From positions 1,232,274-1,296,273 of the forward strand of contig MU053645.1 in NCBI GenBank assembly GCA_013239625.1: a DNA stretch of 64,000 bases, in the 5' to 3' direction. The position numbers and the translations under genes were made by a program. Positions 49,850 to 62,594 of the stretch are shown one piece after another. Numbering within the stretch: position 1 is the first letter of the stretch; each line of letters opens with the position of its first letter. The notes under the pieces were generated by a model, which did not search any database, had not been told where the DNA came from, and saw only the letters and a program-made list of their open reading frames with translations. The DNA comes from Lama guanicoe (lineage: Eukaryota).

Positions 49850-52300
49850 GAAAGTAGCCAGGACACCCCAGGGTCTCAGGGCAGGCGGGCAGAGATGGCC
49901 TCAGAGCGCCAGAGCTCTCCCTTGTCTCGCGTTCGCTGGGAATCCCCAGGAGCGGGAGTGCATTGCCGGGGAACCCCTCACTTCTCCGCCCAAGAGCCAC
50001 CTTCAGCCCCATCTCCTCGCCAGTTGCTCTCTTGGCTGCGGGCAGAAATGTGGGTAGAGTCAAAAAGAAGCACCCACTAGGAGAGTGCCTTCTAGGCTAC
50101 AAAGCCCGCGCGCCAACCGCGGAGACCACAAAGATCCAGCCGCGGAAACGCAAACGCACGGGCTCCCGGCACCGGGCGGGCAGGCGCGCGCTCCTCTTCC
50201 CCGGCGAGAAGCCCCTGGCCGTGGGAGCTCTGGTCCCTAAACTTTCTGGGAGGACTGAAGGCGTAAAAGGAGACCGGCAAGCGCGTCCTGGCGCGGGGAC
50301 CAGAGATGCAGGAGAGGCAGAGTCCCTGTTGGCCTCAGCCTGCCTGCTCCCTGCTGTCACCGGAGAGCCCAGCAGGCTAACCCCTGGCCCTCGCCAGCCC
50401 ACTGTCCGATTCTGAGAATGGGCATTACCTCTGAGTCTTGCGAAACAGCCGGGGACGTCCAGCAGGGCTCAAGCGTGCAGTTCCATGTCCAGGGCGAGAT
50501 GGAAAGCTGGGTTCCAGAGAGCGCGGGCTCGAGCTTCCCGGTCGACCAGGGAGGCTGCCCCAAGGCAAGGGGGCTGGAGGAGGCGTGGGGAAGACGCTGT
50601 CTTCCAGAGCGGCGGGCAGGGCAGCCCCGCCTGTTTTCTCCACTCCCCCTCCTAGCCCAAGAGGACGCTAGGAAACTTCTCCCGCCCAGGAAAGCTTTCT
50701 AGAGTTCAGCAGAGCCTCTGTGGACTTTTCGAGGGAGCCGGACAGGGAGAGGTTAAAGAGGGTTCCTAAATCACTCGGCTCCTACGCTAAAATGGCAGGT
50801 TCCGCCTCTTGGCTCCGTGGCCAGACTCTCCTAAGTCGCCTGCCTCTCAGCCTCTTCCTTCTTCGAGACTTTGCTTCGGAGCAGCCTTGCTCCAGCTCCA
50901 CCTTTTTTTGGCCAAATGGTGCACCGCGGGACGCAGGCGCCTCAGTCCGTGGCCCTCACGCCCCTCACGAGGCACGCACTTCCCAGAGGGCAACAGTCCT
51001 ATATCCCTGGCGGCAGCGCGGGCGCAGTTGCGAACTCTGCCTGCCCGCTGCTCCAACCTTGCCCGGGAACCTCCAACCAGTGCGCAAAAGCCTATATATT
51101 TGCCCTAGCTCCGAAGAAGGAGCGGTACCCGGGAAGTGAGCTCCGGGCTCGCCTCACATCCTGCCGCCGCCTCCAAAATACGCCTAGAGTGGGGGTAGGA
51201 GGATAGTGGAAATCACTAACATCTCCATCGCTAACAGTTTGGTGCCTCCAGGCTGACTGATTACACCGGGGAGGAGGTGGGGATTAGAGAACTGCTCCGG
51301 CGCGTCACGGAAAAGGGTTACTGCTGCTCCTCCTCCTCTTCCACACCCCTCTGGATTTGGGAGCGCGGAGTGGGAGAGTGGGAAAGGATGCCAAACTTCC
51401 CTCTTCTTTCCTGGGAGAAGGAAAGCGCGTCCCAGCAGCGCCGTCTAGCGTCCGTACCAGAATAGGCCGGCCTACAGGGTTGGAGCGAGCGCTGAACCGA
51501 GTGAGCGAAGGCGGGGAAAGTCACTAAGCGAAGTTTTTCAGCTATCCTGGTCCCCAGTTCCACCCACTGAACAGGTTATCTAGTCCAGCCAGGAGTTCAC
51601 CTGCTTAGTTAACCCTAGGTCAGAACGTAATATTAAAAACAAAGGCCACCTAATTGTATCCATAATATGAGCTTTGTAGTACCAGCGAGAATTCTTTTCC
51701 ACCCCTCCCACATTAGAGATTCTTAAGTCTCAGGGTCTTTCAGCTCCGCCAGGGAGGGCAGGGACCCTTGGATGGGCTCGGAGACAGAACCCGGGCCGTG
51801 ATTGTTTATGCTGCGCGTCTGAGGCTCACCGGCGGTACTCCTGACCAACTGAGTCTCCAAGGTCACGCAGCCCAGGAGCTCCTCTCTTTAAGAGTGATGG
51901 GGAGGGAGGGACTACGACTCAGGAACTGATAGGGTTTGAATTGTAGCAGATTAAGAGACCCGTTTCCACGCCAGGTATCTCCCAGAGCGTTCTGCTTGGC
52001 TCACGGGCGCCTTGCTGTTAACACACTTAACAGGATTGCTCATTTAACGGGTCAGCTGAGCGCTATGCTTCAGCATTTGCTGCTGCGCTGGGCTCCTGTT
52101 AATTTGTCTTTCTCTAAGCTTTCTCCAGCTGTTCTTCTGAGGCTGCTCCACCGCTCTGCATTAGCTACAAAGAACGAGCGAGCAAGCCAAAGACGGAGAT
52201 GCAGACAAGGACCGAGAGAAAACAACTGAGCGCTCCGAGCCTTCCGTTCGCTTCCTTGGCCGCATGGCCTCCATACACCATCCCCTGGACTTCTAAGACC
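49850..52300. promoter_or_regulatory. CpG island, probable promoter of an unidentified gene
   Basis: Abrupt switch to GC-rich, CpG-dense, repeat-free sequence (gcgcgc, ccgcgg, GC boxes such as ggcggg); no recognisable coding exon. Confidence 0.85.
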
Positions 52301-56115: not shown

Positions 56116-56402
56116 TCTCGGCAGCCTTAAGTGAGTATGCCATGGGGCCCAGGCCAAAGTTCACAATAGTTTGCACCTGGTAAGAGGTAAATGTACGCAT
56201 GCGCTAGTAGCATGAGTAAGCATTATGAACACTACGCACGTGCCACTAGCATTATAAAAAGGACAAGTGCATACATCTGAGCGCGGTGTACGCCACTTGT
56301 ACTGCAATAAAGTGCTGTTTTGCTCCATGTCAGCTTCTCGTGCCTTCTTCCATTTGGGCAGCTCACCTCCTCGAATCCCTCTTCATCCTCCCTCAGCTGA
56401 CG
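56116..56402 (+). repeat. 5' LTR (287 bp)
   Basis: Direct repeat of 62304-62594; ends TC...CG (decayed TG...CA); TATAAAAA 56253-56260; AATAAA 56306-56311. Confidence 0.97.
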
Positions 56403-56404
56403 CT

Positions 56405-56422
56405 TGGTGTAGCCGGCAGGAT
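56405..56422 (+). other. Primer-binding site, tRNA-Ser
   Basis: TGGTGTAGCCGGCAGGAT, 2 nt after the LTR; 16/18 match to TGGCGTAGTCGGCAGGAT, the complement of the tRNA-Ser(AGA) 3' end. Confidence 0.9.
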
Positions 56423-56431
56423 GAGGTGAGT
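56421..56431 (+). promoter_or_regulatory. Major splice donor with preceding ATG (ATGAG|GTGAGT)
   Basis: Consensus GAG|GTGAGT with GT at 56426-56427; ATG at 56421 has A at -3. Confidence 0.75.
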
Positions 56432-56470
56432 GCTCCTTCTGTTCCCCCTTCCTCTGACGGGGAAGCTTGG

Positions 56471-57795
56471 ATGGAAACAATGTGGCCCCCTACCTCTTTA
56501 TGGCACCCAGTAGCAGCCTATTTGCTGGCGTGGGCTCCACCTGAGGATTGGGACACAGTGGCACCCAGGCCAGATGACATCCTAAAGGCTCTGGAGTTGT
56601 TGGAAAACAACGTCCCACTGCCCCACTGAGAGGCAGCTGGGAGGGTAGCCTGGATGTTTTTATCGATTTTATGTCATGCTAGCCAAGACAATAGAGAATT
56701 ATAGATGCAAGTGGAGCAGTTACAGTGCAAGGAAGAAGAATGCGAGCAGAGACTCGGAAGGCAGAAAGATGCGTGCTTGGCTCCAGTTCCACCGCCTCTT
56801 CGCGAGTGGTAAGCCCGGCCCTTCCCGTTCCACTGTGTCTATGACCTGTGGTGCAGCAGTGGGTGGAACTGGAGGAATCAGTGGCCCAGAGGGGAGCTTC
56901 TGCGGGACCACAGTGAGCGACTCAACAAGCCATCTACATGTCTTATACGTCGATGGAATTGCGGGTCTTGGCAAAGCAGTGTAAGCAGCGTATGGGTGAG
57001 TCAGCCCCTGCATGGCTATTATGCCTTTGGGATGATGGGGCTGACCAGACTGAGCTATCTCTGAAGGAGATGGGCCAGCTGGCCAGTATAAAAACCGTAC
57101 CTTTGTTGCGGGAACGGCTGCAAAACATTCCCCAGTCTAATGCTAATGCTGGCAGCCATACATTGATAAACTGGTTAATGGCTGCTGCACGCACTATGTG
57201 CGACAGTGCCGGAGATTTCCCCGAACATGTGAGTAAATGGACCACGAATTTGGAATTAGCACAAGGTGTCTGAGAAATGGGCATGCGCCAAATGATGTTT
57301 GCTTTGCAATTCCACAGTTCAGATGATGAACTCCTTACAGCTCAGATGAAGGGTCTGATTTTGGCTAACGGCCCAGCAAGAACGTTTGGGACCATGGTGG
57401 CACTACTAGCACTGTATGTAGGCCACCCCATACATGAGGTAACTGACGCTCTGGCTTGTCTAGGGTATGTAGAGGTGCGCCGAAAGGGGATACGTGCCGC
57501 CAAGACTCAAGGTGAGTCCACGACCTCCTCCCGGCAGCGACTCAGAAAGGAAAGCTCACGCAAGGGAGAAGAAAGAGGAATGCCCTGATTTCGGGAGGGC
57601 CCCAGAAAGTAAATCGCTGACAGATATGGTGCGACTTACTGGCAGCCGGCTTGGACCGTATAAAATTAGACAGCCAACCATTGGAGGTCCTGATGGCTCT
57701 ATGGAAGAAATTACTGCCTGAGCAACAACATACTCTGTTGCTGACCTCCCAACAGGCCCGAGAAGGTGGCCCTTGCTGATTTCCTCCCGGACTAG
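56471..57795 (+). pseudogene. gag: gag, disrupted
   Basis: MWPPTSLWHPVAAYLLAWAPPEDW; SYTSMELRVLAKQCKQRMGESAPAWLLCLWDDGAD; QIWCDLLAAG; stops at 56627, 56702 and 57271 plus frameshifts; ends GAC TAG (57793-57795). Confidence 0.9.
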
Positions 57796-60700
57796 GGGGA
57801 AGGCCGAGGTGTCCGGGACGTGGGGAACCCAGGTGACCAGAGGCCGCATATTGAACTATCCACTGGACCCCTACAAATAAACAGTGGGTATTGGCATTAG
57901 TAGATACAGGAGCCGAAATTACATTATTGTATGGAAATCTGGATTGCTTTTGGGGACCACAGGTTGATATAGAGGGATACGGAAGCAAGCAAATGCAAGT
58001 TAAATGAGTGACTCTGACTTTGGGTGTTGGCTGCTTGCCCCCTGCTGCATATGAAGTACATATATCCCCAGTAGCTGAGTATATCCTGGGAATAGACATT
58101 TTGCAAGGATTGGAAATACAGATGACTCAAGGGGAATTTCACCTGAGACTTCACATGGTGAAAACCGTTATATGGGGGCACCCCCATCATGCACCTCTTG
58201 ATTCTGCCACAGGCCACTCAAGTGGTGAACATCAGGCAATTTCGGTTGCCCAGAGGCCACGATGAGATAGGACAGACTAGCCTGAAACTTGAGGACGCCA
58301 GTATAATTCAGGCAATGCATAGCCCATATAACTCTCTAGTGTGGCCAGTGCAGAAGCCAGACGGCTCCCAGAGGATGACAGTGGACTACTGACAGCTGAA
58401 CAAAGTCACCCCCCCATGCACACGGCTGTGCCAAATATAACAGACTTGATGTCCCGGTTGTCCCATGAACTGGGTACTTGTCACTATGTGGCCAATGCAG
58501 TCTTCTCAATAGACAGCCCCTGAGAGCCAGGAACTATTTACATTTACCTGGGAAGGTAGACAATGGACGTTGGCTATGTTGCCACAGCGATATCTGCACA
58601 GCCCCACACTGTGCCATGGCCTGGTGGCCCAGGACCTGGCTACATGGAGCAAACCAGATACCGTTCGTTTGTTTCATTATATAGATAACTTAATGCTACC
58701 CTCTGATTCTCTTTCAGATTTGGAAACCAGTGCCACAGCGCTGTGAGAAGCCCTGGAGAGCTGGGGGTGGGCCGTGAACAAGGACAAAGTGCAAGGACTT
58801 GGATATTTTGTCAAATTCTTGGGTGTTGTCTGGTCGGGTAAGACAAAAGTGCTGCCTGAAGTGGTAATAGACAAGATCCAGGCATATTCCCGCCCTGAAA
58901 CAGTTAAACAGTTACAGACTTACTTAGGTCTTCGGGGATACTGGCGGGTGTTTATTCCTCATTTGGCCCAAATAGCTAAACCCCTGTATAAATTGATTAA
59001 GAAGGGAGAAGTCTGGGATTGGACAGATGAGGCCAAACGTGCATTTGTAGAAAGTAAGAGGGCGGTGGCCCAAGCGCAAGCACTGTGCACTGTAGATCCA
59101 GACCTCCCTTTCTGGTTAACAGTCCATATGGATGATGATAGATATTGTTCAGGCTTACGGCAAAAACATGGGCAATGGAAGGTGCCCATAGGGTTCTGGT
59201 CTCAGTTGTGGAAAGGGGCTGAATATCGGTAATTTTTAATTGAGAAACAACTGTTAGCAACATACGCATCCTTGATAGCAACTGAACCCCTGATGGGGAG
59301 GCAAGAGGCCCACATACCCCACTGCAGGGTGGATACATATGTGGGCAAAGCAACCATGATCAGTAACTGCACAGACCCCAACTCTGACGAAGTGGGGTGC
59401 TTATTTGGAACAGAGGGCCCAATACACTGCTAGCCTCTTGGCTGCAGAGTTGCAGCAGGTGTTAGGGCCTGTGAGATTTGTTGCGCCTGTCATACAGACG
59501 CTCCCACATCAAGGGGTGGACCCCGCACCTAGTCCCTTTCGCAAAGCGGAAGGGACACCCTTGGGAACTGCTTGGTATACAGATGGATCTTGTAAGGGCA
59601 GTCCGCCCACTTGGGTTGCAGTAGAACTGCACCCTGCCACTAAAGCCTTCTGATATGAGACAGGAGAAGGCCAATCCAACCAATGGGCTGAGTTACGGGC
59701 AGTATGGCTGGTGTTGATGAATGAACCCAGCCCATTGCAGATTTGCAAGGATAGTTGGGCTGTATATCAAGGCCTCACATTGTGGACACCCCAATGGGCC
59801 CTGCAAGACTGGACGATTGGGCAACGACCCCTATGGGGACAGTGTATGTGGAAACAGTTGTGGGATAAAGGCCAAGAAGGTCACTATGCTATTTACCATG
59901 TACCAGGGCACCGCCCAGCCTTGGCACTGGGCAATGATGCTGCTGATGCACTAGCCCAACTTCGTCCTGCACGGGCCATGTTTCCAGGACCCAATGTAGG
60001 CCCCTGGCTCCATAAGGAACTTGACCATGTAGGCTCGTACACAATGAGGCATGTAGCTGACTGGTGGGGCCTGCACTTGAGTCAAATTGAAGCCAAGAAT
60101 GCTGTGCGGCAATACCCATAGTGTGCTAAGCACCATCTGCACTGGTGGCGATGGCCCCAACAGACGGGGAAGATTGTACGGGGGATCCAGCCATTGCAGA
60201 TATGGCAAATAGATTGCATAGGCCCATTTGCCCCTAGTACAGGCTTGCGGTACCTGCTGACAGCTGTAGACACGGCTACTGGCCTAGGTTTTGCTTACCA
60301 TGTGTCCCGAGCTACGCAGGACTCTACCATCACAGCATTGGAATTTTTATGAGACTTTTACTAGACTCCCTTAGAAATACAAAGTGATAGAAGGACCCCT
60401 TTTACTGCCCGACAGACCCAGGAATGGGCCAAGGAGAATGATTATTAAATGGACATTGCATGTGCCTTACCGCCTCCAAGCAGCAGGAATGATTGAGTGA
60501 TACAATGGCCTACTAAAAGATAAATTGAGGGCTCTCAAACCACAGGGATGAGGCTGGAACATTGCTCTGCCACAGGCGGTACGTCTTTTAAATGAGCAAC
60601 GTTGCTGTACAGGTATGAGCCCACTAGAGGAGTTATTGCAAGGGACCATTCAGAGACTCAGAGTTGGGCCCATGAAGGATGCCTCCGACATATCAGTAGT

Positions 60701-61143
60701 AGGGCATGCGTTAATATTACACGCCCCCAGGGTTTTGAACTTGGGACAACACGATATATGGGCATGGAAGGACCAGATCCAAACTGAAGGCCCCTGGCTA
60801 GCCCTTTTAGAACCATGGGGTGACGGGCTAAAGAAAGCCCTGCAGGTAACCCCACAAGCAGGGGAATGGCCTTTTGGTGTATGGGTCACCCTAGGAGAAA
60901 TGCGGGTGTCCCTACTTAAGGAGCAGAAGCCCTGCGACTCTGGGCAATTCCACTGATAGCCTCTGAAGCACTTCCAGAGTGTAACCAACCAAGTGTGGGC
61001 GGATTGGTGTGGTACCACTGCCCAGGGCGAACAGCCCTTCCTGGTGCTGTACTTTTGCAGGACGAAAGAGGCGCCTGCATTCTCCTGGGAGAGACTTGCC
61101 AATTATGGTGTCCACCTTTGCTTTATCCTTCTGCCCAGGGTAA
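57796..61143 (+). pseudogene. pol: pro-pol (PR, RT, RNase H, IN), disrupted
   Basis: PR LVDTGA (57897-57914); [38 protein letters not shown] for YIDD (58678-58689), VKFLG; RNase H WYTDGS/AELRAV/GNDAAD; IN WQID, QSD, GMIE; stops at 58005, 58390, 58744, 59230, 59651, 60119, 60362, 60498 plus several frameshifts. Confidence 0.95.
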
Positions 61144-62294
61144 CGACGAATACCGTATTCTCATGGGCACACACATTTGCACGAGTCCACAATGTCTCTC
61201 ATTGCTGGGTCTGTACTGAACTTCCCATAGACACAGGAGATGGACTACCATGGCACCTCCACCCCACATCCAAAACTAATTGGAGCACATTGACTCAATG
61301 GAACGCCAACAGGACAACAGGATCGCCCTGGGACTTGAGGCGTCGGACTATCGAAGATATGCTCCGTTGTGAGCAGGGCAATGCCCCTCCCCTAAGTGGA
61401 AGGACAGTACGGAATGGGTGGGGGTGGATGAATAGTGTCCATGTAAAATTAACAAGTCTAAGTCCCTTCTGTATCGAGCAGTGGTTTGAACGCGAGGCCC
61501 CAAACCGCACAGTGGGGTGGCTCCCCAAAGGGCTGTGTGCCAACATCACTCGCAATGTAAATGCCTCCACTTGGTGGGATGGACGGCGTTTGATTGGCAC
61601 AAAACCCACCGATTTCCTGCCGCCAGGGTATCTGTGGGTATGTGGCACCCACGGATGGTCATATCTCCCAGCTAAATGGACAGGGTGCTGTACTTGGGGT
61701 AAAGCTTACTTGCCGGGGCACATCCGGCCCACTTTAACAGAGTGCCCTGCTAACTGGGATCTGCTGCACACCCGGTGGCACCATAGAAAACATGCAGGTT
61801 GGTGGTTTTATCCCATGGCCCTGTTCCTGCCTGGGGCCGGGACCATCAGTGTAGAGTTGCAGCTAGAAGCTTTAGCTCAGCACGTATCAGCTGCATTGAA
61901 TGTTACAAGGAAAGCCATACAGGAATTATTAGATGAGACCACCCAAATGCGAAAGGTGGTTTTACAAAACAGGATAGCGTTAGACATTCCCACTACAAGC
62001 CCAGACGGCACAAGTGCTATGTTACATATTGAATGCTGTATCTATATACCAGATCACCAGAAGGGAGTCGCTGAGGCATTGCAAGAAATAGATCAAGAGC
62101 TAAATCACATAGACCATGTAACTCAAGACCCTGTTAAGGAATGGTGGTCATCCTTAAGCTCCTCCTGGAGATGGGGCCTAACTGTCCTGGCCATTGTAGC
62201 TGCCTGTTTAGTGTTAGGATGTTGTTCTCTGTATTGTTGTTGTGGTCTTTCGGCACAGTGTTGTGCTTTATGGTCCAGTGTCCCCACGACCTAG
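60993..62294 (+). CDS. env: Retroviral envelope glycoprotein (SU+TM), uninterrupted frame; true start probably supplied by splicing
   Basis: CWVC (61203-61214); seven N-X-S/T sequons; GYLWVCG...LPAKWTG; fusion peptide WWFYPMALFLPGAG; heptad repeat; ISD LQNRIALD; CC; TM helix WGLTVLAIVAACLVLG; Cys-rich tail; stop overlaps the PPT. Confidence 0.93.
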   Translation: MWADWCGTTAQGEQPFLVLYFCRTKEAPAFSWERLANYGVHLCFILLPRVTTNTVFSWAHTFARVHNVSHCWVCTELPIDTGDGLPWHLHPTSKTNWSTLTQWNANRTTGSPWDLRRRTIEDMLRCEQGNAPPLSGRTVRNGWGWMNSVHVKLTSLSPFCIEQWFEREAPNRTVGWLPKGLCANITRNVNASTWWDGRRLIGTKPTDFLPPGYLWVCGTHGWSYLPAKWTGCCTWGKAYLPGHIRPTLTECPANWDLLHTRWHHRKHAGWWFYPMALFLPGAGTISVELQLEALAQHVSAALNVTRKAIQELLDETTQMRKVVLQNRIALDIPTTSPDGTSAMLHIECCIYIPDHQKGVAEALQEIDQELNHIDHVTQDPVKEWWSSLSSSWRWGLTVLAIVAACLVLGCCSLYCCCGLSAQCCALWSSVPTT

Positions 62295-62303: not shown

Positions 62304-62594
62304 TGTCGGCAGCCTTAAGTGAGTAGGCCGTGGGGCCCAGGCCGAAGTTCACAATAGTTCGCACCTGGTAATAGGTAAATGTATGCATGCGCCAGTAGCG
62401 TGAGTCGTCATTATGAACAATACACATGCGCCACTAGCATTATAAAAAGAACAAGTGTGTACACCTGAGTGTGGCACATACCACCCACTTGTACTGCAAT
62501 AAAGTGCTGTTTTGCTCCATGTCGGCTTCTCGTGCCTTCTTCCAGTTGGGCAGCTCACCTCCTCGATTCCCTCTTCAGCCTCCCTCAGCTGACA
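62304..62594 (+). repeat. 3' LTR (291 bp)
   Basis: TGTCGGCAG...CAGCTGACA; TATAAAAA at 62441; AATAAA 62498-62503. Confidence 0.97.

Follow-up and report, generated by a model that had tools for sequence, protein, structure and literature searches.

An env gene of a guanaco endogenous retrovirus that probably takes its signal peptide from an exon inside the reverse transcriptase region

How can a retroviral envelope gene be translated when its reading frame has no start codon? The question is raised by a 6.5-kb provirus, flanked by long terminal repeats (LTRs), in a 64,000-nucleotide stretch of Lama guanicoe DNA (assembly GCA_013239625.1, contig MU053645.1, positions 1,232,274 to 1,296,273 of the forward strand; hereafter the window, whose coordinates are used throughout). 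The first ATG in its env frame (60960-62294) is at 61359, beyond the CWVC motif at 61203, and the frame needs splicing to be expressed, as an earlier note on this DNA had recognized. That note took the start codon from the end of the primer binding site (PBS) and joined it by a single splice to one of two acceptors, at 61061 or 61139. Its coordinates and lengths are all correct (ATGAGGTGAGT occurs once, at 56421, with GT at 56426; with a phase-2 donor, both acceptors lead into the env frame and yield products of 412 aa and 386 aa), and a complete Env can indeed be encoded by this copy. The splice model is nevertheless incomplete, as it misses one exon (58718-58837). We propose that the Env of this family very likely comes from three coding exons, the middle one lying in a shifted frame inside the reverse transcriptase (RT) region and carrying the core of the signal peptide. 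The parts concerned are as follows.

56421..56425, forward strand: env coding exon 1, 5 nt, with the ATG overlapping the end of the PBS and a phase-2 donor (GT at 56426).
58690..58717, forward strand: acceptor of the RT-internal exon, with a branch-point-like motif, a polypyrimidine tract (14/17 pyrimidines) and an AG kept in 26/28 copies.
58718..58837, forward strand: env coding exon 2, a 120-nt piece of RT read one frame away from the RT frame, with its donor GT at 58838.
61110..61139, forward strand: acceptor 2, the env acceptor of the family, directly before the pol stop TAA (61141-61143).
61139..62294, forward strand: env coding exon 3, a class I surface-transmembrane (SU-TM) frame with no stop or frameshift (CWVC at 61203, immunosuppressive domain (ISD) at 61962).

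In the proposed arrangement, exon 1 would consist of the 5' LTR and the PBS and end at donor 56425, the 120-nt RT piece would supply the signal peptide core, and exon 3, entered through the acceptor on the pol stop (61139), would encode SU-TM. In this copy, ribosomes would pass a weak upstream AUG by leaky scanning and begin at ATG 56421, yielding a 426-aa Env (426 codons once spliced); in most paralogues, an in-frame AUG in the R/U5 part of the LTR may add about 42 residues.

Four lines of evidence bear on this proposal. First, the middle exon fits its neighbors. Its entry and exit phases (2-2) are the same as those of the PBS donor and acceptor 2, it ends in CGG followed by the donor GTAAGA, and it is open in the env frame, while the RT frame has a stop inside it in this copy. 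In the 28 other copies examined (out of 39 other full RT matches), the GT and a length that is a multiple of three are each kept in 26, as is the AG; the env frame of the exon is open in 18/26 copies, as compared to 15/26 for the RT frame, and all four features occur together in 14/28 copies.

Second, exon 2 contains a hydrophobic, signal-like core (58797-58835). Its best 11-residue hydropathy is 2.47, as compared to 1.72 for the stretch behind acceptor 1 (the one at 61061) and 0.68 after acceptor 2; the median for 21 colinear relatives is 2.09. Exon 2 would thus encode the core of a signal peptide, its signal function and cleavage being predicted from the sequence.

Third, the first junction is seen in RNA for the family, in a paralogue of this locus. 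Four of the 19 listed RNA runs were compared with the window at 85% likeness (contig depth was not used to rank parts). The joint 56423>58716, which acquires GT..AG ends when the cut is moved by 2 and then reads 56425^58718, was present in contigs of the runs X1-X3 (depth 222, 217 and 114), and it is the sole joint with GT..AG ends among the 15 of 64 joints listed. The PBS donor pointed out in the earlier note is therefore used, and it is joined to 58718; neither of the junctions proposed there, 56425^61061 and 56425^61139, is among these joints.

Fourth, the second junction, 58837^61139, is the one supported by gene models, not by RNA. A protein search with env gave 6 matches. The camelid models begin with an LTR/PBS-derived leader, continue with about 40 residues that are not found near env, and then follow the env frame from acceptor 2; a tblastn search with the middle piece led to window positions 58716-58838. 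The three pieces of the alpaca model XP_015097995.1 match one paralogue (L056, L069, L009) at 98, 100 and 100%, and fall at the same three places in the window. Such three-piece models exist at two camelid loci (XP_015097995.1 and relatives; XP_032353004.1), the second, C. ferus LOC116668910 isoform X2, showing the same three pieces, and exon 2 is present in each of the 7 camelid model proteins in which leader and env are joined. Outside camelids, the N-termini of Rhinolophus and Choloepus env models fit the shifted-frame RT residues of the window at 14/16 and 12/16 positions, respectively (shuffled mean about 3; 0/10000 shuffles reached 14 or 12). Scores of at least 12 were found only in 7 camelid, 5 bat and 1 sloth records, the next score being 9 (53 of 162 proteins with CWxC), and a dromedary and a Hipposideros model switch sequence at the same RT acceptor. 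The RT-internal exon is hence already implicit in automatic NCBI models, where it passes without remark.

Two side observations concern alternative joints of the same region. The C. ferus model XP_032353003.1 has an extra gag-region piece (window 56814-56981) between the leader and the RT exon, that is, a further alternative exon. In run X4, from a second study and of guessed RNA status, a loose end at acceptor 58718 matches the GT (57512) of the following donor.

57509..57517, forward strand: second strong donor, at the end of gag, 9/9 consensus, phase 1; a splice from it would read the RT exon in the frame of RT.

This gag-end donor appears to be joined to 58718 in X4; by its phase, gag would then read on in frame into the C-terminal part of RT.

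Several points weigh against the three-exon proposal. The 56425^58718 contigs come from one study, with one contig per run and 28 letters on the short side, and carry the PBS letters of a paralogue; as they have no DNA control, they may derive from retrocopied DNA. The junction 58837^61139 is not among the 15 of 64 joints listed, and the evidence beneath the NCBI models is not visible. The contigs with 97-98% likeness to this locus are shallow, at depth 3-5, and read through the donor and the two env acceptors without splicing; expression of this locus is no more than possible. No protein more than 80% identical to this env was found in the protein search, and exact look-ups of three versions of the env open reading frame (ORF) matched in 0/3 cases. 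The conservation of ATG 56421 is no proof of its use as a start, because its A and T are forced by the pairing of the PBS. Lastly, the RT motif carrying the exon-2 donor also occurs in bird Pols of unchecked env status, and its conservation may reflect a constraint on RT.

Which acceptor leads into env can be judged from the other copies. An in-frame AG is in itself unremarkable (6 of the 37 AGs in the 600 bases between 60700 and 61300), and therefore the paralogues decide. The AG of acceptor 2 is kept in 26/29 copies, with the stop right behind it, in the frame of the pol end, in 27/29. Upstream of this acceptor the env frame is open for 60 codons in only 4/29 copies, and therefore the family has neither a colinear env start nor a colinear signal peptide.

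The first alternative is that exon 2 is skipped (56425^61139), giving a signal-less 386-aa product or, in paralogues, a protein that uses an LTR-encoded leader as its signal, as is reported for the snakehead retrovirus. Skipping would keep the phase, because exon 2 is symmetric, and an open in-frame R/U5 AUG precedes a moderately hydrophobic leader in 20/29 copies. However, acceptor 2 alone places CWVC at residue 24, as compared to residues 38-56 in the 21 colinear relatives; exon 2 is present in every camelid model joining leader to env, and the bat and sloth models start inside it; and this copy has no in-frame upstream AUG, nor is 56425^61139 among the joints listed. We regard skipping as very improbable. 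An LTR-encoded signal peptide as the main answer was set aside after exon 2 had been found in models and RNA; in paralogues only, it may contribute a longer leader.

The second alternative, which we rate slightly lower again, is that RT coding produces the RT-internal splice sites as cryptic by-products, that only aberrant transcripts from dead proviruses use them, and that env truly starts elsewhere. The motif carrying the exon-2 donor is present in 6/7 related Pols, birds included, and the published HERV-L RT lacks it; the motif may be older than its role in env, and therefore its conservation alone is no evidence. Besides, the acceptor is also entered in other phases, and an alternative frame will often be open for 40 codons by chance. 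Against this, no colinear signal peptide is there to be used, the env frame being closed within 60 codons upstream of acceptor 2 in 25/29 copies, and near-full-length env models from three mammalian orders share the hydrophobic peptide at their start.

The last alternative concerns the acceptor from which the earlier note had derived a signal peptide.

61050..61061, forward strand: acceptor 1, in the env frame only through a lesion near 61086 that is private to this copy.

As that note had suspected, only a copy-specific lesion brings acceptor 1 into frame. The match of the integrase (IN) C-terminus to a related Pol stops at 61084, and all 29 other copies differ by a frame-shifting length at about 61086, so that the lesion is real and private; only L030 of the 29 is in frame at acceptor 1, through a second private lesion. 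The in-frame status of acceptor 1 is thus an accident of this copy, not a design of the family. The hydrophobicity of the stretch behind it would arise largely because it is the translated polypyrimidine tract of acceptor 2, and an unspliced relative, P0016, shows the same read-through of this tract. A single splice 56425^61061, giving a 412-aa Env with a leader created by the pol lesion, is in frame here and has hydropathy (1.72) and CWVC position (residue 50) within the range of relatives, but it is the least probable of the readings, as acceptor 1 is out of frame or unalignable in 28/29 other copies (its AG is kept in 20/29), is the weakest of the three acceptors (11/17 pyrimidines, no branch motif), does not figure in the listed joints, and is unnecessary because exon 2 is intact. 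The signal peptide would accordingly not come from the acceptor-1 stretch; its source would be the exon inside RT.

Returning to the three-exon Env, where does its translation begin? ATG 56421, which lies 5 nt before the common donor in 27/29 copies (the GT of the donor being kept in 24/29), forms a two-codon upstream ORF (uORF) when unspliced. It has an A at -3 and is the only in-frame AUG in the leader of this copy, where it is presumably the env start. Another ATG, which the earlier note did not include (any more than the RT-internal exon 58718-58837), precedes it.

56327..56329, forward strand: upstream ATG in the gag frame, in a weak context.

When spliced to the RT exon, the frame of ATG 56327 stops inside exon 2 and makes an overlapping uORF for env. 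Further up, 20/29 paralogues have an open in-frame AUG in R/U5, where the NCBI models start; both LTRs of this copy are of a shorter R/U5 form without an env-phase AUG. A start at ATG 56421 is therefore right by default for this copy, as the earlier note had it, and a candidate for the family. In L032-L060, the long R/U5 form has one env-phase AUG and a second, gag-phase AUG; the short form of the window has the gag-phase AUG alone, whose frame continues through the PBS into gag.

Has the host retained this env? Exon 3 shows 0 breaks, as compared to 2-19 (mean 8) in 22 full-length paralogues (7 partial copies were left out of the count), and 61139-62294 is the only unbroken env frame among the 30 copies examined, while 9 stops and 4 frameshifts interrupt some 2.6 kb of pol in the same provirus (58516-61140). 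The private changes of this env have a ratio of nonsynonymous to synonymous changes (dN/dS) of 0.12-0.22 (0.06-0.15 in SU), into which pre-insertion changes are mixed, versus 0.45-0.76 in two sister copies (Fisher p 0.003-0.006); compared with its own RNase H/IN, p is 0.02-0.05. Against retention, it is worth noting that, besides this mixing, other copies are as low as 0.23, that the locus was noticed for its open env, and that the protein search and exact look-ups turned up no orthologous protein. The R-x-K/R-R furin consensus at the SU/TM border and the first cysteine of CX6CC, which a syncytin requires, are both missing (all three cysteines are present in 14/22 copies). A co-opted, non-fusogenic env is possible, and we give host retention somewhat less than an even chance.

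Other envs of this type deserve mention here. P0012 (Rhinolophus) and P0003 (Choloepus) are near-full-length env models with ISD and CX6CC intact that start within the RT exon; in bats and sloths they are candidate ERV-S envs retained by the host. The paralogue L009/L056/L069, with a modelled product of 304 aa that stops at the SU/TM border, has annotations in both alpaca and Camelus species, which suggests an old orthologous locus making a soluble SU.

The remaining features of the provirus are the following.

56116..56402, forward strand: 5' LTR, with a TATA at 56253 and an AATAAA region at 56306; short R/U5 form, the same in both LTRs.
56405..56422, forward strand: PBS, 18 nt (TGG...GCAGGAT) after the LTR, present in the window and in the copies.
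62304..62594, forward strand: 3' LTR, with a polypurine tract before it.

The two LTRs differ by 30 mismatches over 288 aligned bases, and the flanks GATAG and GATTG form a 5-bp target-site duplication with one mismatch, as in the ERV-S type. We take the PBS to be of Ser-tRNA type. Two PBS types occur within the family, both ending in letters that form ATG (L036-L060), and they resemble, we presume, two Ser-tRNA isoacceptors. Pfam recognized RNase H, integrase and class I env in the window; the env (TLV_coat, E 1.9e-7) is of class I type by its CWxC, ISD and CX6CC, and its relatives are named PABLB-like and syncytin-Car1. A dUTPase after integrase is absent: the Pol match reaches 61084, the pol stop lies on the env acceptor, and no dUTPase match was found in the 9 pieces scanned. 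The YIDD site of RT is decayed in the window and present in the nearest Pols (55-65% identity). A search of the own genome, self included, gave at least 33 matches for the IN/env border, at least 40 for the leader and at least 41 for the RT stretch. In L033, L044, L045 and L046, at most about 1.5 kb separates the RT exon from the leader, and no env match was listed nearby; these are probably internally deleted elements that still keep the splice sites of exon 2. About 4 kb upstream of the provirus, a GC-rich, CpG-island-like region (49900-52000) was noticed, in which no host gene was recognized. No tRNA was detected in the window by ARAGORN, relatives were found neither in metagenome contigs (scanned with env) nor in viral contigs (scanned with a related Pol), and the ESM Atlas search returned only matches without family (up to 0.90).

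The available parts of PMC4724089 and PMC8278194 describe the ERV-S group by a class III-like pol with a class I env, the lack of a dUTPase, a Ser PBS, a 5-bp duplication and an env beginning at the pol stop. The window element appears to be like HERV-S/ERV-S in these features, and its identification as a decayed ERV-S-type provirus of a camelid fits those descriptions; we use "ERV-S-type" only as a label, because the placement is by described features. As described in PMC8278194, the env of XtERV-S has its own start, overlapping the pol stop, a colinear signal peptide of 19 residues, and an extra ORF in IN. In contrast, the window env has neither its own start nor a colinear signal peptide, and the extra exon lies in RT, not in IN. 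In the PMC4724089 supplements, as far as these were available, no HERV-S entry showed the RT and exon motifs; human HERV-S may still carry them. According to the accessible part of PMC5388530, hsaHTenv (HERV-T) kept its env beside decayed gag/pol, with low dN/dS and a lost furin site, and orthologues and receptor down-regulation were shown. The window env is similar in its kept frame beside a decayed pol, its low dN/dS and its lack of a furin site, a resemblance at the level of sequence.

More distant systems offer partial parallels. The env of avian sarcoma-leukosis viruses (ASLV) uses the gag AUG, one splice and a signal peptide in the env exon. The comparison with ASLV made in the earlier note is loose: both take the start codon from an upstream exon, but ATG 56421 is not in the gag frame, its joint goes to 58718, and the proposed Env needs two splices and has its signal core within RT. 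In the snakehead retrovirus (Hart 1996), env reportedly starts upstream of gag and of a common donor, has a frame without its own start, and has its signal peptide upstream of the donor. The window env resembles this reported arrangement in its start codon upstream of the common donor and its startless frame, and differs from it in having no in-frame upstream AUG and in having its strongest hydrophobic core in the RT-overlapping middle exon. Complex retroviruses make doubly spliced tat/rev, tax/rex and rem, which encode regulatory proteins, and their env is singly spliced. The window env is like tat/rev-type genes in its short middle coding exon in an overlapping frame, and unlike them in that a structural Env needs this exon.

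We found no description of an RT-internal env exon in the literature, including the accessible parts of PMC2717909, PMC8278194, PMC10536682, PMC4724089, PMC5388530 and PMC5210030; subscription papers, Dfam/Repbase notes or bioRxiv supplements could hold one. We consider it probable that the architecture is both real and undescribed. The wider proposal that the ERV-S of camelids, bats and sloths wired in a captured class I env, itself lacking a start and a signal peptide, by means of a signal peptide and two splice sites overprinted on the conserved RT primer-grip region, and that the env at this locus is moreover non-fusogenic and retained by the host, with exons in a PBS and a dead RT, seems unlikely to hold in full.

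Textbook accounts give orthoretroviral env genes a single splice and place the signal peptide within the env exon or immediately ahead of it. To overprint a signal peptide on RT is to solve the problem differently, and suggests a way in which a class III backbone acquired a class I env. Annotation of env as a single open frame would miss the three-exon arrangement, and ERV-S envs would be scored as truncated because screens for intact or co-opted env genes require both a Met and a signal peptide in an ORF. The three-exon model can be tested directly from existing RNA-seq. The loci of bats and sloths and this camelid locus provide candidates for host-retained envs. If the proposal is true, Env would be obligatorily doubly spliced, and its level would be set by the inclusion of an exon that lies inside pol.

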